20,000 nucleotides of DNA from an uncultured virus (IMG/VR IMGVR_UViG_3300027708_000067) (Duplodnaviria; Heunggongvirae; Uroviricota; Caudoviricetes). A program made the position numbers and the translations under genes. Below the pieces are notes generated by a model. It was not told the DNA's origin. It searched no databases and saw only the letters and a program-made list of their open reading frames with translations. This document shows positions 1 through 20,000 of the stretch, in pieces. Numbering within the stretch: position 1 is the first letter of the stretch; each line of letters starts with the position of its first letter. The stretch lies in IMG/VR virus record IMGVR_UViG_3300027708_000067. One strand, 5' to 3'.

Positions 1-3000
1 GAGAAGCCTGAGATACCTGAGAAACCAGAATCACCAGAGAAACCACTGTAACCAGAAATACCGCTGTCACCAGAGAAACCTGAGTCACCAGAGAAACCGC
101 TGTAACCTGAGATACCAGATTGTCCAGAATAACCAGAGAAACCAGAAATACCAGAACCGCTGTAACCAGATTGACCGCTGTAACCACTGATACCAGATCC
201 ACTATAGCCACTGTAGCCAGAGAAACCACTTACACCAGAACCAGAGTAGCCTGAGAAACCTGAGATACCAGAGCCGCTGTAACCAGAGAATCCTGATTCA
301 CCAGAGAAACCGCTGATACCAGAGTCGCCAGAGAAACCTGAGAAGCCACTGTAACCAGAAATTCCAGATGCGCCTGAGAAGCCAGATCGACCGCTGTAGC
401 CAGAGATACCAGATGCACCAGAGAAGCCTGACTCACCAGAGAAGCCACTGTAGCCAGAAATACCAGAGTCACCAGAGAAGCCTGAGAAGCCAGAGTCACC
501 GCTGTAACCAGAAGTACCTACTTCACCAGAGTAACCTGAGAAGCCAGAGATACCAGAACCACTGTAACCAGATTCACCGCTGTAACCAGAGATACCAGAA
601 CCGCTATAACCTGAATATCCAGAGAAACCGCTTACGCCTGATCCAGAATAGCCAGAGAAGCCTGATAGACCAGAGCCAGAGTAACCAGAGAATCCAGATG
701 TACCTGAGAAGCCAGAGATACCAGACGCGCCGGAGAAGCCTGAGATACCGCTATAACCAGATTTACCAGAGAAGCCTGATGTGCCTGAGAAACCACTGTA
801 ACCAGAAATTCCAGAGTCGCCAGAGAAACCTGAGATACCGCTGTAACCAGATGTACCAGTTGCGCCTTGTAAATTAATATCCCATGGATATACACCCGAA
901 CCAGCGTAATTGTTTACGTTGAATGAGAACAAACCTGTTGTTGGGTTGTATGCTGTAACAGTTACGTTGGCATAGTTAAAGGCGTCGTGAGCAATAACCG
1001 CTGTTTGACCAACAGTCCAGCTTAATCCTGTGCCAACAATAATGGCACCAGAAATATCACCTAGAGCAAAGTCGCCGTCTGTACTGGTAGTTGCATACTT
1101 GTCGCTAGCACCAGAAGTACCACTGTAACCAGAGAATCCTGAGATACCAGAGAAGCCTGATGCACCAGAGTAACCAGAGAAGCCGGAGATACCTGAACCA
1201 GAGTAACCAGATTCACCACTGTAACCAGAGATACCAGATCCGCTGTAACCACTGTAACCAGAGAAGCCAGATGTACCGATACCACTGTAACCAGAGAAAC
1301 CAGACAAGCCAGATCCGCTGTAGCCAGAGAAGCCAGACTCACCAGAGAAGCCACTGTAACCAGATTCACCAGAGAAGCCACTATAACCAGATTCACCAGA
1401 GAAGCCAGACGCACCAGATTCACCGCTGTAACCAGAAAAACCAGATTGACCATCTGGGCCTACGATTTGACCAGCGTTAAACCAGTTTGTGCCATTCCAT
1501 ACATACAAATCGCCGTCGGCTGTAACAATGTACGCATCATTAACTTGGTTGCCAATTAATGGTAAGTCGCCTACTGTTGCAACAGTGCCTTTGAGGTTGA
1601 TTGAAGTACCTTGAGCGCCGCTGTAACCAGAGTAGCCTGAGTAACCTGAAGCACCATCAATACCGCTGTAACCAGAAGCGCCATCAATACCGCTGTAACC
1701 AGAGATACCTGAGAAGCCAGAATCACCGCTGTAACCGCTGATACCGGATCCACTGTAACCACTATAGCCTGAGAATCCAGAGATGCCTGAGCCACTGTAG
1801 CCAGAGAAACCGCTTACGCCAGAGCCACTATAGCCAGACTCACCACTGTAACCGCTGATACCGGATCCACTGTAACCGCTGTAGCCTGAGAAGCCAGAAA
1901 TACCAGAAGCACCGGATGCACCAGAGTAGCCAGAGAAGCCAGATAGACCGTCAATACCACTGTAGCCAGAGAAGCCAGAATCGCCTGACCAACCAGAGAT
2001 ACCAGAGTCACCAGAATAACCTGAGATACCAGAGTCACCGCTGTAACCAGAGATGCCTGAAAAGCCAGAGATACCAGACGCGCCTGAGAAGCCAGAGAAA
2101 CCGCTGATACCAGAGAAGCCAGATGTACCTGAGAAACCGCTGTAGCCAGAGATACCAGATCCACTGTAACCAGAGTAACCTGAGAAGCCAGAAATGCCAG
2201 AGCCAGAGTAACCAGAGAAACCACTGATACCAGAACCTGAGTAACCAGACTCACCGCTGTAACCACTTATGCCGCTGCCACTGTAACCACTGTAACCTGA
2301 GAAGCCAGAAATACCGCTGTCGCCAGAGAAACCAGAAATGCCTGAGAATCCGCTGTAACCAGAGATACCAGAATGGCCAGAAAAACCAGAAATGCCTGAG
2401 AAACCGCTGTAACCAGAGATACCAGAGTCGCCTGAGAAACCGCTGATACCAGAATCACCGCTATAGCCTGAGATACCAGAGTCGCCAGAGAAACCTGAGA
2501 AGCCTGAAATGCCAGAAGCTCCAGATTCACCTGAGAAACCGCTGTAGCCAGAGATACCTGATCCACTGTAACCAGAGTAACCTGAGAAGCCGCTAATACC
2601 AGATCCGCTGTAGCCAGAGAAACCGCTAATACCAGATCCGCTGTAGCCAGAGAAACCGCTGTAGCCGCTTACGCCAGATCCGCTGTAACCACTGTATCCA
2701 GAGAAACCAGAAATACCGGAGTCACCAGAGAAACCAGAATCGCCTGAGAAGCCACTGTAACCAGAGATACCAGAATGGCCAGAGAAACCTGAAATACCTG
2801 AGAAACCGCTGTAGCCAGAGATACCAGAGTCGCCAGAGAAACCGCTGATACCAGAATCACCGCTGTAACCAGAAATACCTGAATCACCAGAGAAACCAGA
2901 GAAGCCAGAAATGCCAGAGTGGCCAGAGAAGCCAGATGTACCTGAGAAACCGCTGTAACCAGAGATACCAGATCCGCTGTAGCCAGAATAGCCAGAGAAG

Positions 3001-6000
3001 CCTGAAATGCCAGAACCAGAGTAACCAGAGAAACCTGAGATACCACTACCACTGTAGCCAGATTCACCACTGTAGCCACTAATACCAGAGCCACTGTAAC
3101 CAGAATAACCAGAGAAGCCAGAAAGTCCAGAGTCACCAGAGAAACCTGAGATACCAGAATCACCGCTGTAACCAGAAATACCAGAGTCGCCAGAGAAACC
3201 GGAAATACCAGAATCACCACTGTAACCACTAATACCAGAGTCGCCAGAGAAACCTGAAATACCGCTGTCACCAGAGAAGCCTGAAATACCTGAGAAACCT
3301 GATTCACCTGAGAAACCAGAAAAACCGCTTATGCCAGAGTCGCCCGAGAATCCACTGTAACCTGAGATACCTGAGCCACTATAACCAGAATAGCCAGAGA
3401 AACCAGAAATACCAGATCCGCTGTAACCAGAGAAGCCAGATACACCGCTTCCAGAATAGCCTGAGAAGCCACTATAACCGCTGTCACCGCTTCCGCTGTA
3501 ACCAGAGTAGCCAGAGAAGCCAGAAAGTCCAGAGTCGCCTGAGAAGCCGCTAATGCCGCTAAAACCGCTGTAGCCAGAAATACCAGAGTCACCAGAAAAG
3601 CCAGAATCGCCTGAGAAGCCACTGTAACCAGAGATACCACTGTCGCCAGAAAAACCTGAAATACCGCTGTCACCAGAGTAGCCAGAAATACCAGACGCGC
3701 CTGAGAAACCAGATTCACCAGAGTAACCAGAAATACCTGAATCACCTGAGATACCAGAATCACCAGAGAAGCCGCTGTATCCAGAAATACCAGATCCGCT
3801 GTAGCCAGAATAGCCAGAGAAACCTGAAGTTCCTATTTCACCGCTGTAACCAGAGAAGCCTGATAAGCCAGATCCGCTATAACCAGAGTATCCAGACTCA
3901 CCACTGTAACCAGAATCACCAGAAAAACCTGAGATACCAGAATCACCACTGTAACCAGAGATACCGCTGTCGCCAGAGAAACCAGAGAAGCCTGAGATAC
4001 CAGAATCTCCAGAAATACCGCTGTCACCGCTGTAACCACTGTAACCAGAGTCACCAGAACCGCTGTAACCAGAATAGCCAGAGAAGCCAGATGTACCTAT
4101 GCCGCTGTAACCAGAGAATCCTGATAGACCACTACCAGAATAGCCAGAGAAGCCGCTATAACCAGAAATACCGCTACCACTGTAACCAGAGTAGCCAGAG
4201 AAACCAGAAGTTCCTACTTCACCGCTGTAACCAGAAAAACCTGATTCGCCAGAGAAACCTGAAATACCAGAATCACCACTGTAACCAGAAATACCAGAGT
4301 CACCACTGTAACCACTAATACCACTGTCACCAGAGTAACCAGAATTGCCACTATAACCAGAGTCACCACTGTAACCACTAATACCACTGTCACCAGAGAA
4401 ACCTGAAATACCAGAGTCACCGCTGTAACCAGAAATACCAGAGTCGCCAGAGAAACCGGAAATACCAGAATCTCCACTGTAGCCACTTATACCACTATCA
4501 CCAGAGAAACCGCTGTAACCAGAGAAACCTGATGTACCAGAGCCACCGCCAGAACCTGGCTGACCGCTGTAGCCAGAGAAACCTGACAAACCGTTTTGTC
4601 CGCTATAACCAGACAAGCCATCTTGTCCGCTGTAACCAGAAGCGCCGTCTTGTCCAGAATAACCAGACTCACCACTTAAACCATCTTGACCGCTGTAACC
4701 AGAGAAACCTGATTCACCGTTTTGGCCAGAGAAACCTGAAATACCAGACGCACCGTTTTGTCCAGAGAAGCCTGAGATACCAGATGCACCATCTTGACCG
4801 CTGTAACCAGAAATACCGGAAGCACCATCTTGACCACTGTAACCGGATTGACCATCTTGACCAGAGTAACCAGAGAAACCTGATTCACCATTTTGTCCGG
4901 AGTAACCAGATTCGCCGGATGCACCGTCAATACCGCTGTAACCAGAGAAACCACTTAAACCATCTTGACCTGAATAACCTGATTCACCAGAAAGACCATC
5001 TTGTCCGCTGTAACCAGAGATACCAGATGCACCATCTTGGCCAGAGAAACCTGAAATACCAGATGCACCATCTTGACCACTGTAACCAGAGATACCAGAT
5101 GCACCATCTTGACCAGAGAAACCTGAAATACCAGATGCACCATCTTGACCACTGTAACCAGACTGACCATCTTGACCAGAATATCCAGACTCACCAGATA
5201 AACCGTCTTGTCCACTGTAACCAGATAAACCAGATGCACCATCTTGGCCTGAGAAACCACTTAAGCCATCTTGACCACTGTAACCAGAGAAACCTGATTC
5301 ACCGTTTTGGCCAGAGAAACCTGAGATACCAGACGCGCCATCTTGACCGCTGTAACCAGACTCACCAGACAAACCATTTTGTCCAGAATAGCCAGAGAAA
5401 CCAGAAATACCAGAGTGACCAGAAACACCAGATCCGCTGTAACCAGAAATACCTGAGAAACCAGAGATACCACTGTCACCACTGTAGCCAGAAATACCAG
5501 AGTCGCCAGAAAAACCACTGTAACCAGAAATACCGCTGTCACCAGAGAAACCTGAGAAGCCGCTGTAACCGCTATCACCAGTTGGGCCAACAATTGGACC
5601 TACGTTGGTCCATGCTGCGCCAGTCCATACATACAAGTCACCATTAGATTGAACAATGTATGCGTCATTTAAATTGCCTGTTGGTGGTAAGTCCCCTGGA
5701 GTTGCAACAGTACCAATAATATTAACTGATGTACCTTGCGCACCACTGATACCAGAGAAACCACTGTAACCAGAAATACCAGAGTCACCTGAGAAACCGC
5801 TGATACCAGAATCACCACTGTAGCCAGAGAAGCCTGAGATACCAGAGTCGCCAGAGAAACCTGAGATACCAGAGTCACCACTGTAACCAGAGATACCGCT
5901 ATCACCAGAAAAACCTGAGAAGCCAGACAAGCCATCTTGGCCACTGTAACCAGATTCACCGGACAAACCATTTTGTCCAGAAAAACCAGAAATACCAGAC

Positions 6001-7160
6001 GCACCATCTTGACCGCTGTAACCAGATTGACCAGACAAGCCATCTTGTCCGCTGTAACCACTTAAACCATCTTGACCAGAAAAACCAGAGAAGCCAGACA
6101 ATCCATCTTGTCCACTATAACCAGATTCACCAGATAAACCATTTTGTCCAGAGAAACCAGACTGACCATCTTGACCTGAGAAACCAGAAATACCAGATGC
6201 GCCATCTTGTCCTGAGAAACCAGAAATACCAGATGCACCATTTTGTCCAGAAAAACCAGAGATACCAGATGCGCCGTTTTGACCGCTGTAACCAGAGATA
6301 CCAGATGCGCCGTTTTGACCGCTGTAACCAGATTCGCCAGACAAGCCATCTTGTCCAGAATAACCAGATAATCCAGAAACGCCATCAATACCGCTGTAAC
6401 CAGAAAAACCACTTAAACCATCTTGGCCTGAATAACCAGATTCGCCAGACAAACCATTTTGTCCTGAATAACCTGATTGACCATCTTGACCTGAGAAACC
6501 AGAAATACCAGATGCGCCATCTTGTCCAGAAAAACCAGAAATACCAGATACGCCATCTTGTCCAGAGAAACCTGAGATACCAGATGCGCCATCTTGACCA
6601 CTGTAACCAGATTGACCGCTTAAACCATCTTGACCGCTGTAACCTGATTCACCAGAAACACCATTTTGTCCAGAATAACCTGATGTGCCATCTTGACCAC
6701 TGTAACCAGACAAGCCGTCTTGACCAGAGTAACCAGAGAAACCTGATTCGCCAGTTTGACCGCTATATCCAGAGTAACCAGAAGCAGAAGCTGCGCCAGG
6801 TGCGCCACTATAACCAGAAAAACCTGAGAAACCAGAATCACCAGATACGCCATCTTGACCTGAATAACCAGAGTCACCTGAAACGCCATCTTGACCAGAG
6901 TAACCAGAAAAACCTGATTGACCGTCTTGACCTGAGTAACCAGAGTCACCAGACAAGCCATCTTGACCGCTGTAACCAGATTCACCACTATATCCAGAGT
7001 AACCAGATGCAGAAGCTTGACCATCTTGTCCAGAATAACCAGAAAAACCTGAGAAACCAGATGCGCCGTCTTGACCACTGTAACCAGAGTCACCAGATGC
7101 ACCATCTTGACCGCTGTAACCAGAAAAACCTGAGTAACCAGAAACGCCAGACGTGCCACT
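1..7160 (-). repeat. Degenerate 9-bp coding tandem repeat (GGT-NNN-TCT/AGY) with higher-order duplications
   Basis: The + strand is dominated by ccagagaaa/ccgctgtaa/ccagaaata/ccagagtca units, interrupted by non-repeat blocks at about 858-1109, 1452-1619 and 5583-5741. Confidence 0.95.
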
Positions 7161-7418
7161 ACCACCGCCAGTGGGTGGTTGTAAAGATAAATTGCCAGCA
7201 CCATCGGTGGTCATTACATAACCAGATGTGCCGTCACTTGTTGGGTACGCTAACCCAGTAATTGTAATTTGTGTGCCAGCTGTTAATACGGCATTAACAA
7301 TATTGTTTGGTGTTGCTTTAGTTGTAACTGTACCGCCGTCTGACACTAAAGGCAATACGTCATTATCCGGTGCAACAGTTGTTACCGGAGGCAATTGTGT
7401 TATTTTTATATCTGCCAT
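1..7418 (-). CDS. Giant Gly-X-Ser repeat (collagen-like) fibre protein, 3'-partial, at least 2472 aa
   Basis: ATG at 7418 gives MADIKITQLPPVTTVAPDNDVLPLVSDGGTVTTKATPNNIVNAVLTAG..., then (SGY/SGF/SGI/SGD/QDG)n. The frame was checked by hand at 5700, 1497, 882 and 3 and is the same throughout. The ORF track lists no closed ORF from this ATG, consistent with no stop before the window edge. Confidence 0.9.
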   Translation of the reverse strand, partial: MADIKITQLPPVTTVAPDNDVLPLVSDGGTVTTKATPNNIVNAVLTAGTQITITGLAYPTSDGTSGYVMTTDGAGNLSLQPPTGGGSGTSGVSGYSGFSGYSGQDGASGDSGYSGQDGASGFSGFSGYSGQDGQASASGYSGYSGESGYSGQDGLSGDSGYSGQDGQSGFSGYSGQDGVSGDSGYSGQDGVSGDSGFSGFSGYSGAPGAASASGYSGYSGQTGESGFSGYSGQDGLSGYSGQDGTSGYSGQNGVSGESGYSGQDGLSGQSGYSGQDGASGISGFSGQDGVSGISGFSGQDGASGISGFSGQDGQSGYSGQNGLSGESGYSGQDGLSGFSGYSGIDGVSGLSGYSGQDGLSGESGYSGQNGASGISGYSGQNGASGISGFSGQNGASGISGFSGQDGASGISGFSGQDGQSGFSGQNGLSGESGYSGQDGLSGFSGFSGQDGLSGYSGQDGLSGQSGYSGQDGASGISGFSGQNGLSGESGYSGQDGLSGFSGFSGDSGISGYSGDSGISGFSGDSGISGFSGYSGDSGISGFSGDSGISGYSGFSGISGAQGTSVNIIGTVATPGDLPPTGNLNDAYIVQSNGDLYVWTGAAWTNVGPIVGPTGDSGYSGFSGFSGDSGISGYSGFSGDSGISGYSGDSGISGFSGISGYSGSGVSGHSGISGFSGYSGQNGLSGESGYSGQDGASGISGFSGQNGESGFSGYSGQDGLSGFSGQDGASGLSGYSGQDGLSGESGYSGQDGQSGYSGQDGASGISGFSGQDGASGISGYSGQDGASGISGFSGQDGASGISGYSGQDGLSGESGYSGQDGLSGFSGYSGIDGASGESGYSGQNGESGFSGYSGQDGQSGYSGQDGASGISGYSGQDGASGISGFSGQNGASGISGFSGQNGESGFSGYSGQDGLSGESGYSGQDGASGYSGQDGLSGYSGQNGLSGFSGYSGQPGSGGGSGTSGFSGYSGFSGDSGISGYSGDSGISGFSGDSGISGYSGDSGISGFSGDSGISGYSGDSGYSGNSGYSGDSGISGYSGDSGISGYSGDSGISGFSGESGFSGYSGEVGTSGFSGYSGYSGSGISGYSGFSGYSGSGLSGFSGYSGIGTSGFSGYSGYSGSGDSGYSGYSGDSGISGDSGISGFSGFSGDSGISGYSGDSGISGFSGDSGYSGESGYSGYSGSGLSGFSGYSGEIGTSGFSGYSGYSGSGISGYSGFSGDSGISGDSGISGYSGESGFSGASGISGYSGDSGISGFSGDSGISGYSGFSGDSGFSGDSGISGYSGFSGISGFSGDSGLSGFSGYSGYSGSGDSGYSGFSGYSGSGVSGFSGYSGSGISGFSGYSGYSGSGISGYSGFSGDSGISGFSGFSGESGFSGISGFSGDSGISGFSGDSGISGYSGDSGISGFSGDSGISGYSGDSGISGFSGDSGLSGFSGYSGYSGSGISGYSGESGYSGSGISGFSGYSGSGISGFSGYSGYSGSGISGYSGFSGTSGFSGHSGISGFSGFSGDSGISGYSGDSGISGFSGDSGISGYSGFSGISGFSGHSGISGYSGFSGDSGFSGDSGISGFSGYSGYSGSGVSGYSGFSGYSGSGISGFSGYSGSGISGFSGYSGYSGSGISGYSGFSGESGASGISGFSGFSGDSGISGYSGDSGISGFSGDSGISGYSGFSGISGFSGHSGISGYSGFSGISGFSGDSGISGFSGYSGYSGSGISGYSGESGYSGSGISGFSGYSGSGISGFSGYSGYSGSGISGYSGFSGTSGFSGISGFSGFSGASGISGFSGISGYSGDSGISGYSGDSGISGWSGDSGFSGYSGIDGLSGFSGYSGASGASGISGFSGYSGYSGSGISGYSGESGYSGSGVSGFSGYSGSGISGFSGYSGYSGSGISGYSGDSGFSGISGYSGIDGASGYSGIDGASGYSGYSGYSGAQGTSINLKGTVATVGDLPLIGNQVNDAYIVTADGDLYVWNGTNWFNAGQIVGPDGQSGFSGYSGESGASGFSGESGYSGFSGESGYSGFSGESGFSGYSGSGLSGFSGYSGIGTSGFSGYSGYSGSGISGYSGESGYSGSGISGFSGYSGASGFSGISGFSGYSGTSGASDKYATTSTDGDFALGDISGAIIVGTGLSWTVGQTAVIAHDAFNYANVTVTAYNPTTGLFSFNVNNYAGSGVYPWDINLQGATGTSGYSGISGFSGDSGISGYSGFSGTSGFSGKSGYSGISGFSGASGISGFSGTSGFSGYSGSGLSGFSGYSGSGVSGFSGYSGYSGSGISGYSGESGYSGSGISGFSGYSGEVGTSGYSGDSGFSGFSGDSGISGYSGFSGESGFSGASGISGYSGRSGFSGASGISGYSGFSGFSGDSGISGFSGESGFSGYSGSGISGFSGYSGSGVSGFSGYSGYSGSGISGYSGQSGYSGSGISGFSGYSGQSGISGYSGFSGDSGFSGDSGISGYSGFSGDSGFSGISGF

Positions 7419-7419
7419 A

Positions 7420-7620
7420 TTAATTTGTCACCAATAAGTCGTTATTTTGGGTGGCGATAATGTCGCCAAATTGTGTAATGATGTATAAGCCTGTTTCATA
7501 CGGGGGCGCATAACTAGTAAAAATTGTGCCACCACCAATACCGTAAAGTGCAATTACTTGAATAGCTTGTCCGCTACTCGTATTTACTCGATCAACTACT
7601 CCTGCAGATCCAATAGCCAT
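7420..7620 (-). CDS. 66-aa small virion protein, putative fibre adaptor
   Basis: Tightly packed ORF (2-nt gap upstream, 1-nt gap downstream). C-terminal IITQFGDIIATQNNDLLVT has a duplicated hydrophobic-T-Q-x-G/N-D motif. Confidence 0.7.
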   Translation of the reverse strand: MAIGSAGVVDRVNTSSGQAIQVIALYGIGGGTIFTSYAPPYETGLYIITQFGDIIATQNNDLLVTN

Positions 7621-8699: not shown

Positions 8700-9098
8700 T
8701 TACGTAATAATATCGCCAGGTTCGCCAGCGGTTGTAGCTTTTTCTTTTGTTTGAGTAATAAATACTGAGTTGCGACCAGGGTTGTTTGGTTGACGTACAA
8801 GCTGCCCGGGAGGGCTGTCAATCGGACCAGTTGGTGCGTCGCCAGTAACAATCTGCTGACCACCAATTGGGCCTGTAGCAACACTGACGTCTGGGCGCGG
8901 GAAGCGCAACGCAATATTTTCTGTTTGTATGGCGGGTAAACGCCATGGGTCAAAATTATCTTTATCTTCTGCACATACTCGCATCCCTGGAAAGTTGGGA
9001 TCGGGCATTAAATCTACATAAGCAAACTTGCGCGAACATCTGTCACATATTGCTACGGACAGTACGCTGTTACCTCGAGTATCAAGGTAGACAGGCAT
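8700..9098 (-). CDS. 132-aa hypothetical virion protein with Cys motif (CDRC...RVC)
   Basis: ORF packed 2-3 nt from both neighbours; AICDRC-x19-RVC motif; Pro-rich C-terminus. Confidence 0.75.
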   Translation of the reverse strand: MPVYLDTRGNSVLSVAICDRCSRKFAYVDLMPDPNFPGMRVCAEDKDNFDPWRLPAIQTENIALRFPRPDVSVATGPIGGQQIVTGDAPTGPIDSPPGQLVRQPNNPGRNSVFITQTKEKATTAGEPGDIIT

Positions 9099-9469: not shown

Positions 9470-9901
9470 TTAGTTATTGGTATAACCAGAACCGTATGGA
9501 GTAATTGTACCGTCAGCGTTACGTGCAGTGTAAACAACAGAGAACACACCAGCAGAATCATCAGAACCAGCAGCAGCGCGCAATGTTGATGTTGCAGTGC
9601 CAGTGTTAGCTGATAATGTTACGTTAGTTAATACGTTGATGGTTGGGGCGTTAGTTGCTACTGTACCAACAGATACACCATCCAAAGTCACAGCACGTGA
9701 TGTGCCAGTGTTGGTTGGGTAAAATTGTACGTAGCTGATGCAAGAACCTGCAGGTAAGTATACAACTGCATCGGTTGCAGTAGTAACAGTAACTTGTTGG
9801 CTTAGTACGGCTGCGCCAGTATTATCTGGGCTTGTTGTACCATCGTTGCTAGTTGTTTGGCGTGTGTTAACACGTAAAGGGGCTGTAAATGTGCTTGACA
9901 T
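9470..9901 (-). CDS. 143-aa Thr-rich hypothetical structural protein (possible capsid decoration)
   Basis: Likely start is the ATG at 9901 (MSSTFTAPLRVNT...) rather than the TTG at 9970 in the track. It lies directly downstream of the MCP and is beta-rich. Confidence 0.7.
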   Translation of the reverse strand: MSSTFTAPLRVNTRQTTSNDGTTSPDNTGAAVLSQQVTVTTATDAVVYLPAGSCISYVQFYPTNTGTSRAVTLDGVSVGTVATNAPTINVLTNVTLSANTGTATSTLRAAAGSDDSAGVFSVVYTARNADGTITPYGSGYTNN

Positions 9902-9998
9902 TGTTGTATTCCATTTCTCAGTGGGTATCCCAAACTGTCCCTGAGTTGTGATGCCGGGAAGGGTCGGCAATCAGGATGGGATTAATCTTCCTATACCT

Positions 9999-10028
9999 AC
10001 TAATGCAAACTTTTCAAAAAATCCGCCC
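9999..10028 (-). promoter_or_regulatory. Bipartite motif copy 1 (GGGCGGA-N12-TTTGCATTAGT), putative late promoter
   Basis: + strand ACTAATGCAAA at 9999-10009, 12 nt, TCCGCCC at 10022-10028; directly downstream of the MCP terminator. Confidence 0.8.
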
Positions 10029-10035
10029 TAAAAAA

Positions 10036-10068
10036 GCAAAAAAGCCACCTTGTGGGTGGCTTTTTTGT
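10036..10068 (-). terminator. Rho-independent terminator after the major capsid gene (potentially bidirectional)
   Basis: AAAAAAGCCACC-TTGTG-GGTGGCTTTTTT inverted repeat with A/T tracts on both sides, about 14 nt past the MCP stop. Confidence 0.9.
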
Positions 10069-10081
10069 ATTGCGAGGGTTT

Positions 10082-10999
10082 TTAAACGCCTTGAGTACCG
10101 TAAACGTTACGTGCGTCGTGCCAACCAGTAGCATAACGCTCGGTTGCTTTGTAACGCATAGAATCAGTCTCGAAGTCACCTTCCATGGATTTCTCCATTG
10201 GACGACGCATAACGAGCATGAGACCGTTTTCAGCATCAGTCTGAACCCACCAAGCTTTGCTAGAGGTCAAACGTGTTACCACGTGTGTACCTTTAGGCAA
10301 CATGCCTGTTGATTTGATTGGGTTCAAATCGTTGTCGGCTGTACCAGAACGGAGAACAGACTTCAGAATAACTTCTGCCTGGAACTCAAGTGCTGGAGGA
10401 ACAATTAATTGTTCTGCCTTTAAACGAATACGCTTACCGTTGTTGTCAATTGCGCCACGGATTTGAATCAAAATCTGTTCAACAGACGTTTGGCTCAAAG
10501 CAGCAGGAGTTGTCAACTTATTGCTATAGGTTTGACCGTTAGCAATTGGGTGAGCTGTATTGATCAAAGTTACGCCGTCACCGCCTACGTAGCCTGCTGT
10601 GAACGCAAAGTTCAAGAGGTTAGCGCAAAGGGTTTCTTTGGTTTCAATCATTGACTGAGCAAGATGCTTAGCAAATGTTGAGCCGATACGGATGTGATCG
10701 CCGTCTTCCATCAAAACTTTGGTCAAAGCGTAAGCCAAGCCATAGATTTGGTAGATGAAACGGGTGATGTACAATGTACCGCCTTGGTCGTAGCTAACTG
10801 GAGTGCCGTCAGGCATTGAGGGAGCTGCGTTCATACCAAACAGCATTACTTCTTCATGGTAGTTACGTGGGATACCTTGGATCTGCTCTACAAAGCCTTT
10901 CCATTCGTCTGCACGTTGCTCATATACACCATCAAAGACTTCGTTGATAATCGGTTCGACTACCGCACGAAAGTCTGTACTACGCATTGGGGTTGCCAT
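10082..10999 (-). CDS. Major capsid protein (HK97-fold type; family often annotated Mu gpT-like)
   Basis: 305 aa with GGDGVTLINTAHP, LIVPPALEF and EGDFETDSMRYKATERY motifs. It follows the scaffold/cement genes and has a strong terminator downstream. Confidence 0.88.
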   Translation of the reverse strand: MATPMRSTDFRAVVEPIINEVFDGVYEQRADEWKGFVEQIQGIPRNYHEEVMLFGMNAAPSMPDGTPVSYDQGGTLYITRFIYQIYGLAYALTKVLMEDGDHIRIGSTFAKHLAQSMIETKETLCANLLNFAFTAGYVGGDGVTLINTAHPIANGQTYSNKLTTPAALSQTSVEQILIQIRGAIDNNGKRIRLKAEQLIVPPALEFQAEVILKSVLRSGTADNDLNPIKSTGMLPKGTHVVTRLTSSKAWWVQTDAENGLMLVMRRPMEKSMEGDFETDSMRYKATERYATGWHDARNVYGTQGV

Positions 11000-13289: not shown

Positions 13290-13733
13290 TTAATCTACAA
13301 AGGCTTTCATTTTTTGCGCATCTTCAAAAGTCTTGACGCGGCAAATGATTTCACGTGCCTGTAATGTAATGAAAATAATTGGAGCACCTTCATCGCCAGC
13401 GTCAAGAACAAAACGATCTCCGCCGTACTTAATGGTTCTCACAATATCGCCAACTTTACACCAAGGGCCTTCTGGCCATGGCTCCAAAGTATCTGGAGAC
13501 TTATACGCTAAAGGTCCAATTTGGACTACTTTTGCAACTGTCTCATTAAACTTTAGTGTTTGCTGGGTTTCATCTGGTAAATACAGGCCACTATTTGTCA
13601 TAGTTTTAACGCGTCTTAATTGCACAAGTACGCGGTCACCTGCAACTTCAACCCCTGGATCTATCACAGGAAAAACTTCTGCTTCCGTGCGTGGATCTGG
13701 TGGGTCATTCTTTTTTATATCATATGCTGCCAT
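13290..13733 (-). CDS. groES: GroES/Cpn10-like co-chaperonin
   Basis: GDRVLVQ strand, TNSGLYLP mobile-loop-like segment, AKVVQIGP and KVGDIV motifs characteristic of Cpn10; AAGGAG SD upstream. Confidence 0.85.
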   Translation of the reverse strand: MAAYDIKKNDPPDPRTEAEVFPVIDPGVEVAGDRVLVQLRRVKTMTNSGLYLPDETQQTLKFNETVAKVVQIGPLAYKSPDTLEPWPEGPWCKVGDIVRTIKYGGDRFVLDAGDEGAPIIFITLQAREIICRVKTFEDAQKMKAFVD

Positions 13734-17156: not shown

Positions 17157-18602
17157 TTATTGCGCATAAGGATTTGTAAACCGCTTTTTGTAGTCGTCAT
17201 CAGCGTAGTCATAATCGCGTGGGGGTAGGGGGTCTAGCTGCAACCACCCAGAATCCCGAAGAACCCGTAATGCTTGTGAAAGGGAATCGACATAGTCATC
17301 GTGACCCCCGGCTTCTGGAAAGGAACAGACTTGGCGAAGGAACCTTTTGGACCAATCTGCAAACTCGCCTTTTTTACCCGGCTCCTCCGGTATGTAAACT
17401 TTTCCTTTTGCCACCAAGGGTGCCACGATGTTCAAACGCTGCACCTTATCGGCTCGTCCTGGGTTGTAACCCCGCACAGGCACCGAGGCGCCTTGGAGCT
17501 CTTGAATCAGGGAGATACCAGCGGACTTGTCTTCCATCAGGATCAAGTCTGCCTTACGGCCTTTGGCAAATGAGTTGTCTGCTCCGTATACCACTTCCTT
17601 AAAGTCGTCGATTACCTTACGACGCAGCTCAGGGTAAGACAGATGGTTGTCCCATGAGTCTAGCAAAATGACGCAAGTGCCGGCGTCTTCTCTATCAAAC
17701 ACACCCCATACCGTACAAGCCGTGGGGTCGTTCATGGTTTTTTCTGAGGTTGCTGGATCGTATGAGGCAATTACGTATTCCAGTGTTGGCGTTGGTTTGT
17801 CCGCAGGCCATAACTTAAACATCTTGCGTTTAATGATGCCAGATGACTCAGGATCCAAGATCTCGCCATAGATCTCTTGGCGGCCCATGTCAGTGCCATC
17901 GTACGTCTCAAGCTGTTTAAAGAACGTTTCAGATAGGTTTTCGCGGTTGTCATACGACGAGGCGTTAACCACATATACGTCACCACCAACTTTGCCCTCA
18001 AATAAATCAACGATTAGTTCTTTAGGTTTAGGCGTTGTGGTGATGATCTGTTGAACACGGGCGATTCTGGGATCTTTGAGACGTAATGTAAATTGCACAC
18101 CATCGTAGGCTTCGTCAAGGTAATCGAAGGCGCAGAGTTCGTCAAACCAAGCTCCGTGATATTGCTTACCTCGATAGCGTTCTGGTTCCGAACCAGGAAT
18201 ACCCTGAATAATTGATCCGTTAATAAGGGTGATTTCAAATAATGATTTGTTGTAGTCCCGGATGATGGCAGGTGGAATAATATTGAGTAGTCCGCTGTCG
18301 CCTTCAAAGCAAGTGGCTCGAATGTCATTACTGGTTGGAGCAGTAACAAGCCAGCGAGTATTGTCATATTTCCAAGCGCGAATCCCAATCCAATGCGACG
18401 CAGTATGGGTCTTTCCAGAACCGCGTCCAGCCAACATAAGAAACGTGTCATATTCCCCGTCTTCTGGTTCTTTTTGGTGTGCTAACGCTTGAAGTGCCCA
18501 TTTGACCTGCCAAATGGCAGAATCAAGCTGTGGTTTAGGCCAGTGCTTATTATTGTCCGCAAACTTCTTGAGCGTCAGTATTTGTTTTTCTGTTAACGAC
18601 AT
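17157..18602 (-). CDS. terL: Terminase large subunit
   Basis: Walker A AGRGSGKT, Walker B AWFDE, motif III ITTTP, and RNase H-like nuclease acidic motifs SYDPA, MEDK and HDDYVDS. Confidence 0.95.
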   Translation of the reverse strand: MSLTEKQILTLKKFADNNKHWPKPQLDSAIWQVKWALQALAHQKEPEDGEYDTFLMLAGRGSGKTHTASHWIGIRAWKYDNTRWLVTAPTSNDIRATCFEGDSGLLNIIPPAIIRDYNKSLFEITLINGSIIQGIPGSEPERYRGKQYHGAWFDELCAFDYLDEAYDGVQFTLRLKDPRIARVQQIITTTPKPKELIVDLFEGKVGGDVYVVNASSYDNRENLSETFFKQLETYDGTDMGRQEIYGEILDPESSGIIKRKMFKLWPADKPTPTLEYVIASYDPATSEKTMNDPTACTVWGVFDREDAGTCVILLDSWDNHLSYPELRRKVIDDFKEVVYGADNSFAKGRKADLILMEDKSAGISLIQELQGASVPVRGYNPGRADKVQRLNIVAPLVAKGKVYIPEEPGKKGEFADWSKRFLRQVCSFPEAGGHDDYVDSLSQALRVLRDSGWLQLDPLPPRDYDYADDDYKKRFTNPYAQ

Positions 18603-19585
18603 GCTATGAATCCTTCTCCTACGAGAATCGTGTTGTCTTCCCCAGTTGTTTCAATATGAACGCAGGACTGTGGGGCAATAGGCTCAATTAGTTTAATAAA
18701 CCGTCTTTTATGATGCACCTTTATCGGCGGCGAGACTTGGTCTTGTATTAATTGTAACCTAGATTTAAAAAATATTGTGAAACTTGGTTTAGAAGGATCG
18801 TGTAACACATTGATTCTATGGCCTAAAGATTCCAACAGACACTGTATCTGCAAAATAATAGGCTGGGTTGTGGCAGAAATTCTAAACCGGTCTTTACCTT
18901 TGGAATACTGGCGCGATTTGGCGTACAAAATTCCACGCAGCAATTCAATTCTTTGTTCTTTAGATGCTAAAAGGTAATTGTTTGGTATCCGTATTGGCAT
19001 ATTGCCAGCCAAATGCGATTCTATTGTAGGAAAAACTACAAACTCTCGTTCGCCGTTGGGAATTTTTTGGTATTCAGTAACCTGATACCCAGCGTCTTGA
19101 AATTGTTTATATATCTCCGGGGCAAATCCACGGGGTGAAGCCATGCGTTTGTTTTTTCGGCGGTTAAAAAACCAAAACCCAAATAGGAAAGGCGGGACCG
19201 GAAGGTCTTGGGTGGGGAAATCTAAGGGTTTTGTTGTGGGGACAGAGAACGAAAGCCTGTTTCGTCTATCCCGAAGACTGGTTTCTGTAAGGGTTGCTAT
19301 AGTTCTGGGGCGTAGTTTGCGCCGAAACTTTTGAATCCCTTTATACGCAGCTTCCTGAGTGCGGCATTTCTTTGTTTCTACCAGAAATCCAAGGTGTTGA
19401 TCCCCTGCCACGGATAGATGATCATCAAATACTACCTCATAGCACTGTTCGGCACGGTATTCTTGTACCAATTTTATTTGGACTATTTTTCCATCTTTAT
19501 CAAAGACATAGTCACCAGGCTGCAAGTTACGGGCAGCTTTCCAATAATCAAGGGTTAGTACTTTTTGGTTCGCTAATATGGCCAT
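18593..19585 (-). CDS. Free-standing intein-like protein (Hint-N + degenerate LAGLIDADG + Hint-C), catalytic residues lost
   Basis: Block A-like AILANQKVLTLDYWK..LQPGDYVFDKDG; block B-like CYEVVFDD..VAGDQH; endonuclease blocks LPVPPFLFGFWF, IPNNYLLASKEQRIELLRGIL and LLESLG; blocks F/G-like FIKLIEPI...HIET...ILVGEGFIACR*. Overlaps the terL start by 10 nt. Confidence 0.8.
   Translation of the reverse strand: MAILANQKVLTLDYWKAARNLQPGDYVFDKDGKIVQIKLVQEYRAEQCYEVVFDDHLSVAGDQHLGFLVETKKCRTQEAAYKGIQKFRRKLRPRTIATLTETSLRDRRNRLSFSVPTTKPLDFPTQDLPVPPFLFGFWFFNRRKNKRMASPRGFAPEIYKQFQDAGYQVTEYQKIPNGEREFVVFPTIESHLAGNMPIRIPNNYLLASKEQRIELLRGILYAKSRQYSKGKDRFRISATTQPIILQIQCLLESLGHRINVLHDPSKPSFTIFFKSRLQLIQDQVSPPIKVHHKRRFIKLIEPIAPQSCVHIETTGEDNTILVGEGFIACR

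Positions 19586-19917: not shown

Positions 19918-20000
<83 letters not shown>

Follow-up and report, generated by a model that had tools for sequence, protein, structure and literature searches.

A 3,008-residue Gly-X-Ser fibre gene and its sugar-adding enzymes suggest that an uncultured freshwater phage finds host cells with a very long, sugar-coated fibre

What kind of protein is built by a phage from hundreds of Gly-X-Ser triplets almost free of proline, and what might such a protein be used for? The question is raised by the first 7.4 kb of a window of 20,000 nucleotides (the whole stretch of DNA analyzed) from the uncultured virus IMG/VR IMGVR_UViG_3300027708_000067. The window formed the final 20 kb of one virus contig of 68,107 bp, and the source is an uncultured freshwater phage with a 68.1-kb genome, whose head genes relate to those of Caulobacter phages RW and KcrB. 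On the minus strand, the frame 3..7418 was open to the window edge and encoded 2472 amino acids (aa) from an ATG start with no stop. An initial annotation, made from the letters alone, had described this frame as a very long virion fibre of more than 2470 aa with unusual chemistry, possibly O-glycosylated on Ser. The frame was borne out from the ATG on, and since it continues past the window edge in the contig, the given length was a lower bound. The complete open reading frame (ORF) comprised 3008 aa at contig 46506-55532, 13% of the genome, and its stop and C-terminal part, which were to be sought by extending the contig, were found, the protein ending in a 58-aa tip. The sequence observation was thus confirmed and its interpretation partly supported: the fibre gene and the sugar-adding enzymes encoded beside it suggest that the phage finds its host cells by means of a very long fibre coated with sugar.

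The composition of the part encoded in the window was dominated by Gly (31.7%) and Ser (27.9%), followed by Tyr (7.5%), Phe (6.2%), Ile (5.6%) and Asp (5.2%), and Pro contributed 0.8% (19/2472), or 0.7% in the full protein. The nearly Pro-free triplets first estimated in the hundreds were counted as 693 Gly-X-Y triplets in 36 runs within the window (runs of at least 4 triplets). Counted over the full protein in runs of at least 3, there were 860 triplets in 63 runs, which took up 2580 of 3008 residues (86%), and the longest unbroken run extended over 139 triplets (aa 667-1083). Ser was present at the Y position in 727 of the 860 triplets (85%). The X position was filled by Tyr (218), Phe (188), Ile (115), Asp (68), Gln (67) and Ala (47), with Tyr and Phe together making up 47%. 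The charge of the full protein was strongly acidic, with 6 Lys and 3 Arg vs 136 Asp and 34 Glu. The stabilizing content usual in collagens, namely Pro or hydroxyproline or Lys/Arg-Asp/Glu pairs, was not found in the giant fibre.

The Gly-Ser-Gly register breaks reported at first proved real: 57 one-residue deletions of the form Gly-X-Gly were detected, and X was Ser in 54. Starting at aa 1079, the breaks came mostly in fours, spaced 14-11-14 or 11-14-14 residues, and the clusters recurred about every 134 aa, in agreement with a 402-bp super-repeat of ~72% identity in the DNA. Collagen was the only Pfam family matched by the giant protein, with no C1q/TNF-like C-terminal domain, and the very strong PF01391 match (811 bits, E 6.2e-251, 16 stretches; cut-off 27.2) puts the triplet pattern well outside what chance would produce and makes a collagen-like triple helix the simplest reading. 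The PHROG tail-fibre families phrog_6320 (E 7.9e-296) and phrog_5073 (E 1.9e-259) were also matched, with scores derived largely from the repeats. A search for homologous proteins near the length of the giant was dominated by animal collagen VII and did not return the query or its IMG/VR relatives, so it gave no length ranking; among its 52 matches, environmental proteins of the Gly-X-Ser type had at most 248 triplets.

A protein sequence as highly repetitive as this one could stem from an assembly expansion or a decaying repeat pseudogene, and expansion or frameshifts had been named at the outset as what would overturn the fibre. The longest exact DNA repeat in the gene was 56 bp and no k-mer of at least 75 nt recurred; with repeats diverged to this degree, the gene is resolved by ordinary reads. 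IMG/VR contigs from three other metagenomes were collinear with it at 99.97-99.99% with 0 gaps, and one of them spanned 19,235 bp including 8.7 kb of the giant gene. In two diverged relatives the frame stayed open over 3,272 aa from Met (3,275 stop-to-stop) and 2,460 aa (2,463 stop-to-stop). Amino-acid identity to the two orthologues was 93.7% and 85.8%, the ratio of nonsynonymous to synonymous substitution rates (dN/dS) was 0.134-0.215, and the indels against the closer orthologue were single 3-aa triplets or 134-aa units (134; 115+19). The giant gene was contained, partly or wholly, in 24 freshwater or lake metagenome runs (17 coded studies). Four runs were compared as k-mer contigs, which fragment in repeats and alone are no proof of length; run X2 covered 30/30 bins of the gene with no differing letters and no indels. 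In the metatranscriptome run X19, 12 exact pieces fell in 15/30 bins, where DNA carry-over is possible. The Logan k-mer contigs of runs X7 and X11 contained joints within the gene, as an expansion would produce, but the sides of these joints were 20-36 nt (one 71), too short to distinguish length variants from graph artefacts, in runs with strain variation at the level of single-nucleotide polymorphisms. The chance that the giant frame is an expanded or decaying artefact is thus close to nil, and assembly expansion is essentially excluded.

Selection on the triplets was visible position by position. Gly was identical between orthologues at 100% and 97.4%, and the Y position at 97.6% and 90.5% vs 83.7% and 67.2% at X, where the commonest changes were Phe/Tyr and Phe/Ile. 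Aligned Ser-Ser pairs switched between TCN and AGY codons in 85/703 and 117/502 cases, a count that may pair paralogous repeat units and so be inflated. At the level of codons and residues, this switching and the conservation of Y point to selection for Ser itself.

The same data bear on how the tracts fold. A polyglycine-II (PGII)-type bundle, a silk-like filament rich in beta structure or, in the manner of FUS-type low-complexity domains, a disordered sticky polymer rich in aromatic residues would each, in place of a triple helix, accord with a Pro content, a scarcity of basic residues and a frequency of Tyr and Phe at X unlike those of characterized collagens, and with 57 register breaks that would disturb a continuous triple helix. 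Against these folds stand the strict recurrence and conservation of Gly at every third residue over such long runs, the strength of the PF01391 match, the confinement of indels to whole triplets, and the flanking of the tracts by a knob found between tail-fibre collagen repeats in hundreds of phages. PGII bundle proteins of the snow-flea antifreeze and phage S16 gp38 types consist of antiparallel PGII helices that pack through small residues. Such tight packing leaves little room for bulky aromatic side chains, and the presence of Tyr, Phe or Ile in more than 60% of X positions would argue, indirectly, against PGII. The PGII bundle and the FUS-type hydrogel, both proposed initially, gained no support from any test run, and this group of folds is considered quite improbable.

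Glycosyltransferases (GTs), which were to be looked for downstream, were found directly 3' of the fibre gene and were linked to such fibres across phages. The first of three co-oriented enzyme genes followed the fibre stop by 24-51 nt, the first two junctions between the enzymes overlapped by 8 and 4 nt, and the third gene lay 3 nt from the next tail-fibre-like gene. For the GT2-methyltransferase fusion, the PDB relatives were chondroitin synthase and UbiG-type methyltransferases. The 326-aa enzyme showed a weak Pfam GT2 match and a DDD motif invariant across 36 homologues, and it was modelled with a GT-A fold (predicted local distance difference test, pLDDT, 88.8; predicted template modelling score, pTM, 0.87). 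A sequence search of PDB with this enzyme found no relative. The structural neighbours of the model in PDB included hyaluronan synthase, chondroitin polymerase, TarP, COLGALT1 and polypeptide GalNAc-transferases (E ~1e-10 to 1e-8, TM ~0.45-0.56), a match that, on the model, is generic GT-A. The 146-aa protein matched the C-terminal half of GT9 heptosyltransferases (PF01075, 28.3 bits, profile positions 166-218 only). Its NCBIfam matches were lipopolysaccharide heptosyltransferase I/RfaC/III only, far below the cut-offs (23.9 vs 185.3 bits), and TIGR04414, the family of the BAHT (TibC/Aah) enzymes, was not listed at E up to 10. One GT9 enzyme may be split between the 146-aa ORF and the C-terminus of the 326-aa protein; searched against Pfam and NCBIfam (E up to 10), the 82-aa C-terminal piece of the latter had no family match. 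In the early region, a gene resembling RmlB, a dTDP-glucose 4,6-dehydratase (contig 9698-10756, plus strand; TIGR01181, E 1e-72, below cut-off), could supply a 6-deoxy-sugar precursor to the fibre-linked transferases.

The enzymes were 61%, 71% and 61% identical to P19250A_0024 to 0026 of Methylophilaceae phage P19250A (KX815270.1), where they stood in the same order after a 1201-aa Gly-X-Ser fibre. P19250A was not among the matches of the major capsid protein (MCP) or portal of the source phage, and the sole match of ten query pieces from its tail region to the source contig was one unrelated small ORF. The cassette was also carried by two further P19250A-like backbones, L081 and L085 (gpJ 52-55% identical). 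Judged by these comparisons, the fibre and its enzymes are a mobile cassette common to two unrelated phage backbones. A wider survey covered the IMG/VR loci of the best 80 of 394 relatives of the 326-aa enzyme; a Gly-X-Ser collagen ORF was defined by at least 15 triplets with Ser in at least 60% of Y positions, a testable locus by at least 600 bp of upstream sequence, and clusters by 95% nucleotide identity. All three enzymes were present in 77/80 loci. Such a collagen ORF ended within 1 kb upstream of the enzymes in 58/66 testable loci (26/30 clusters), started within 1 kb downstream in 31/55 loci, and was present on either side in 34/37 clusters. The complete upstream fibres ranged from 658 to 2,463 aa. 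In ~186,000 species genomes, the 326-aa enzyme had 4 matches, all on contigs of metagenome-assembled genomes, so the enzyme is essentially confined to phages, and since these contigs came from four unrelated phyla, no host can be inferred. What the locus represents is a collagen-like phage fibre of extreme length, with distinctive chemistry and a dedicated mobile modification cassette, which is not unique to the source genome.

Whether the cassette acts on the fibre was weighed against an unmodified collagen-like virion fibre, with the GTs and the methyltransferase acting on phage DNA, host surface polysaccharide or another virion protein. In PMC10202952 and PMC12619734, the role often ascribed to phage GTs is to protect DNA or to alter the host surface, and in the former, GTs of other freshwater phages (actinophages) are given DNA or cell-wall roles. 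The polysaccharide synthases among the GT-A fold neighbours (hyaluronan synthase, chondroitin polymerase, TarP) and the missing BAHT/TibC-type protein-glycosylating signature of the GT9-like enzyme in NCBIfam are in keeping with such targets. On the other side, the enzymes travel with Gly-X-Ser fibres on two unrelated backbones and in nearly all de-replicated clusters, their genes, whose frames overlap or abut, are flanked by fibre genes inside a late structural operon, and Ser at Y is nearly as conserved as Gly. An unmodified fibre was accordingly judged unlikely.

The best reading of the locus, held with moderate confidence, is a trimeric collagen-like virion fibre of ~0.7 micrometre, O-glycosylated on Ser; a giant fibre with likely Ser O-glycosylation appears to be supported by its genomic context. 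Three chains would wind into a collagen-type triple helix, and 2,580 triplet residues at ~0.29 nm each would give ~0.75 micrometre if fully helical and extended, from which the quoted ~0.7 derives. Attachment to the virion, most probably at the tail or neck, would be through the N-terminal 84 residues. Along its length the fibre would be divided by the two trimer knobs, the 79-aa insert and the periodic Gly-Ser-Gly clusters, the clusters and knobs being probable hinges between ~30-nm rods, or else registration points. Glycosylation of the Y-position Ser is proposed because the helix would have neither Pro nor the Lys/Arg-Asp/Glu pairs that stabilize other bacterial collagens; the three co-oriented downstream enzymes would attach and methylate the sugar, which the RmlB-like dehydratase may supply. 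A sugar coat of this kind could hydrate and stabilize the helix and mask the exposed stripe of Tyr and Phe. The long flexible fibre might then enlarge the radius of host capture in dilute lake water, allowing long-range and reversible capture, and the receptor would be bound by the C-terminal tip or by the Gly-rich proteins whose genes follow those of the enzymes.

The place of the fibre on the virion was approached through gene order, which ran from the MCP through small ORFs, fibres, enzymes, Gly-rich tail-fibre-like proteins and lysis genes to an SU10 adaptor. By comparison with related genomes, the fibre genes appear to occupy the tail-fibre slot, and attachment would probably be at the tail rather than at the head. 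In the uncultured spring phage MW202545.1, which has the same gene order, annotated tail fibre and tailspike genes occupy this slot, and both the 132-aa ORF preceding the fibre genes and the fibre N-terminus have counterparts there; the N-terminus of a second, 357-aa Gly-X-Ser fibre was 53% identical over 43 aa to that of the annotated tail fibre. The cassette of P19250A-like siphoviruses follows the gene for the gpJ-type tail tip, and the PHROG matches of the giant fibre are tail-fibre families. The early claim of a very long structural gene of phage fibre type held up through the structural operon, these PHROG families and the occurrence of the knob in 328 phage records. A head fibre or capsid decoration would fit fibre genes placed immediately after the major capsid gene and the small head-proximal ORFs, upstream of the lysis and adaptor/tail core genes, and PDB and PHROG searches of the giant fibre found no anchor domain of known structure; set beside the tail-type counterparts, attachment to the capsid has a small but appreciable probability.

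Several points weigh against the glycosylated tail-borne fibre. We infer its triple helix, its glycan, its presence and position in the virion and its function from gene, composition, selection, slot and linkage, and the possible inflation of the Ser codon-switch count detracts from one of these supports. In host-guest peptide data, triple helices form poorly with aromatic residues at X and with Ser at Y, and the fibre is almost devoid of Pro and of Lys and Arg. The 'tail fibre' labels in the relatives and in PHROGs are automatic annotations, and the N-terminus of the giant resembled the tail-fibre-type N-terminus of the 357-aa fibre weakly (35% over 62 aa; pairwise E 6e-4). The GT folds are generic, and such enzymes could modify DNA or host polysaccharide. 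Under the definitions used, 8/66 testable loci had no upstream Gly-X-Ser ORF. The MCP was 91-97% identical to that of the source in 14/14 loci whose flank reached it, so most loci belong to one freshwater phage group and the linkage counts are not independent; the main independent evidence for linkage is the P19250A-like backbone (3 members).

A bolder form of the proposal can be offered only tentatively. The fibre might embody a distinct solution to collagen stability, a proline-free and lysine-free triple helix in which Ser at every Y position carries a methylated, possibly deoxy, sugar added by an enzyme trio found only in phages, and in which the sugars stack on the Tyr/Phe stripe and replace hydroxyproline and salt bridges. 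The cassette would be swapped among unrelated freshwater morphotypes, and the length would be tuned by whole 134-aa units, as the 2460, 3008 and 3272 aa of close relatives suggest, giving a sub-micrometre 'fishing line' ten times the capsid length.

The segments of the fibre and the features around it are listed in Table 1. Block 1 of the collagen part contained two 'SAS' triplets without Gly (aa 136-138 and 211-213). The N-terminal anchor was 94-100% conserved in three related phages. Knob 1 matched its 328 phage records mostly among proteins annotated as tail fibre or collagen-like, including those of Escherichia, Erwinia, Gordonia, Mycobacterium and Serratia phages, with P19250A gp23 as the best match (81%). 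A search of solved structures with the knob profile found no relative, and the PDB matches of the knob, tip and insert queries were weak or of low complexity, such as villin/gelsolin and collagen chains. The 58-aa non-collagen C-terminal tip, which lies off-window and ends in GGTF, had no PDB or Pfam match and one weak PHROG match of unknown function; the 79-aa insert had no PDB match at E <0.2 and no PHROG match; and a PHROG scan of both fibre N-termini and the 132-aa ORF returned no match. A homotrimer prediction of aa 535-640, which span knob 1 with collagen on both sides (3 copies, 17-row alignment), scored 0.00 with an uncertain partner fold and is uninformative either way on trimerization. 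On the plus strand, two ORFs lay inside the fibre gene (window 4532-5647, 371 aa; 6197-7261, 354 aa); they are putative shadow frames of the low-complexity repeat and not genes.

Table 1. Segments of the giant fibre gene, adjoining ORFs and enzyme genes (window positions unless marked as contig)
Feature	Position	Strand	Basis or remark
5' 7416 nt (aa 1-2472) of the 3008-aa fibre gene	1..7418	-	ORF translation; gene continues 1609 nt past position 1 to contig 46506
N-terminal non-collagen anchor (putative), aa 1-84 (MADIKITQLP...)	7167..7418	-	similarity to N-terminus of 357-aa fibre
Collagen block 1, aa 85-564, mainly GYS-GQD-GxS-GxS units	5727..7166	-	run analysis
Knob 1, aa 565-610 (GTVATPGDLP...DAYIV..GDLYVW.G..W)	5589..5726	-	phage-record matches
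Collagen block 2, aa 611-1939: longest run, then 134-aa super-repeats with four Gly-Ser-Gly breaks each	1602..5588	-	run analysis
Knob 2, aa 1940-1986	1461..1601	-	paralogue of knob 1, 67% identity
Collagen block 3, aa 1987-2105	1104..1460	-	run analysis
79-aa non-collagen insert, aa 2106-2184	867..1103	-	gap in triplet runs
Start of collagen block 4, aa 2185 onward	1..866	-	continues off-window to ~aa 2950
66-aa ORF between the two fibre genes	7420..7620	-	stop one base before ATG of giant gene
Second, short Gly-X-Ser collagen-like fibre, 357 aa	7623..8696	-	PF01391, 73 bits
132-aa ORF preceding the fibre genes	8700..9098	-	homologue (48% identity) directly before annotated tail fibre of MW202545.1
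GT2 + methyltransferase fusion	contig 45228-46481	same strand, off-window	PF00535 E 1.2e-17; PF08242 E 2.8e-11
GT-A enzyme, 326 aa	contig 44255-45235	same strand, off-window	fold model
GT9-like protein, 146 aa	contig 43818-44258	same strand, off-window	PF01075

Compared with known systems, the closest was P19250A gp23, annotated as 'tail length tape-measure protein', which had the same proline-free G-[Y/F/W/I]-S chemistry. The chemistry described at first as unusual was therefore so with respect to textbook collagens but was not unique, since P19250A and many IMG/VR contigs carry G-[Y/F/I]-S fibres. Differently from the 3008-aa fibre, gp23 has 1201 aa and a larger globular C-terminal domain, and the first enzyme of its cassette (209 aa) is without the N-terminal GT2 domain present here; its backbone is that of a cultured siphovirus with a gpJ-type tail tip. 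No function was described for the P19250A cassette in the literature searched, which covered papers citing the phage. Just upstream of the P19250A fibre cassette, P19250A_0021 ('PE family protein'; L006:5383-8160, plus strand) is a Gly-rich protein whose Gly-rich stretches by eye recall the Gly-rich proteins after the enzymes here, and BLASTP gave no match between them (E up to 1e-3).

Surface filaments of collagen-like type whose triplets contain a hydroxy amino acid are also formed by BclA of the Bacillus exosporium and in the BclA3-SgtA system of Clostridioides difficile, where they are O-glycosylated by GTs encoded beside the structural gene. A GT gene adjoining a hydroxy-residue collagen gene was likewise found here, and the methylated deoxy-sugars contained in BclA glycans are paralleled by the methyltransferase and the RmlB-like gene. 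However, BclA and BclA3 are bacterial spore proteins with tens of triplets, mostly GPT or GxT with proline, and a C1q-like C-terminal domain, whereas the giant fibre has neither a C1q/TNF-like domain nor a spore context, and the enzymes have no detectable sequence relation. In the cuticle collagen of the tubeworm Riftia, which is very long, O-glycosylated Thr at Y replaces hydroxyproline as stabilizer; this is an animal extracellular matrix protein that contains proline and uses Thr and not Ser, and its analogy with the giant fibre is purely mechanistic.

Among phages, the EPclA-D proteins of Escherichia coli O157:H7 prophages, as presented in the accessible part of PMC3368898, are likewise of tail-fibre type, with a trimeric Gly-X-Y stalk between globular phage-fibre domains. 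The collagen domain there spans 111 residues and ~30 nm, measured at ~0.29 nm/residue; Pro fills roughly half of its X positions, charged residues are frequent, and no glycosylation is observed in that part of the paper, which mentions threonine glycosylation as a collagen stabilizer. In contrast, the giant fibre has 2580 triplet residues, 0.7% Pro, Ser at Y, aromatics at X and a linked enzyme cassette. Modification of their own structural proteins by phage GTs is known from mycobacteriophage virions (Freeman et al. 2023, as cited in the accessible part of PMC12619734), where the targets given are the C-termini of capsid and tail-tube subunits and not a collagen-like fibre, and hosts and enzymes are other ones. 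Collagen-like proteins are placed in a hypervariable island of freshwater actinophages in the portion of PMC10202952 consulted, and collagen repeats are listed among putative receptor-binding proteins in that of PMC7029224. The literature searched contained no description of a Gly-X-Ser collagen fibre of phages accompanied by a glycosylation cassette.

If the proposed structure is correct, abundant freshwater phages build collagen fibres of sub-micrometre length, free of proline and hydroxyproline, and modify them with glycosylation enzymes of their own. For phage ecology, this would show how a small virus widens its capture radius in dilute water, with a fibre length evolving by gain and loss of units, and for virion glycobiology it would extend phage protein glycosylation well past the mycobacteriophage cases. 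For biomaterials, it would offer a recombinant, hydroxylase-free, sugar-stabilized triple helix with aromatic side chains, and the four-gene cassette is compact enough for direct co-expression.

The ORFs adjoining the giant gene were partly shared with relatives. The 66-aa ORF, a candidate fibre assembly factor or connector, had 100% amino-acid identity in a relative (G002) whose giant fibre was only ~86% identical, and the 132-aa ORF was 58% identical to KcrB gp075c. In most related IMG/VR phages, the enzyme-linked fibres begin with an N-terminus of the same type as that of the 357-aa fibre (MADQSI[ST]QLP...), whose C-terminus, GGGF, resembles the GGTF of the giant. Downstream of the enzymes, three paralogous Gly-rich tail-fibre-like proteins of PF21722 (431, 423 and 842 aa) were followed by a DUF7483 protein (contig 38682-43814, minus strand). 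The paralogues had near-identical N-termini of ~160 aa and are possible distal or alternative receptor-binding proteins.

In the wider genome, the minus-strand genes of the window were, in order, large terminase, 955-aa portal, GroES-like protein, MCP, three small ORFs, the 357-aa Gly-X-Ser protein, the 66-aa ORF and the giant gene. After the three enzymes, the PF21722 proteins and the DUF7483 protein, the contig continued with holin, endolysin, an SU10-type adaptor and further virion proteins. The early region encoded DNA polymerase A, a class II ribonucleotide reductase, a primase and a sigma-70-like factor, besides the RmlB-like dehydratase. The closest cultured relatives were Caulobacter phages RW, KcrB, RLK and GB2A (MCP 64%, portal 50%), and MW202545.1 was slightly closer than these; none of these relatives carried a giant gene in the fibre slot. 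The window differed from the contig at 19988, 19990 and 19992, and its final 7 bases (all A) lay past the contig end, an oddity of the record end (19988-20000) that has no bearing on the fibre.

Three further genes drew attention. The GroES/Cpn10-like co-chaperonin (window 13290-13733, minus strand) lay within the head module, with the portal on one side and the scaffold/capsid on the other, and was also kept in KcrB (gp090c) and MW202545.1. Two ORFs of the minus strand at window 17157-18602 and 18593-19585 corresponded to a complete large terminase (Terminase_6N and 6C) preceded by a 330-aa ORF, which also matched large-terminase PHROGs (phrog_15, E 5e-13). The terminase may be split or duplicated; KcrB has two ORFs labelled 'terminase large subunit' with a methyltransferase between them. 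The sigma-70-like factor of the early region was small and encoded off-window (L001:4955-5521, plus strand), with matches to Sigma70_r1_2 and r3.

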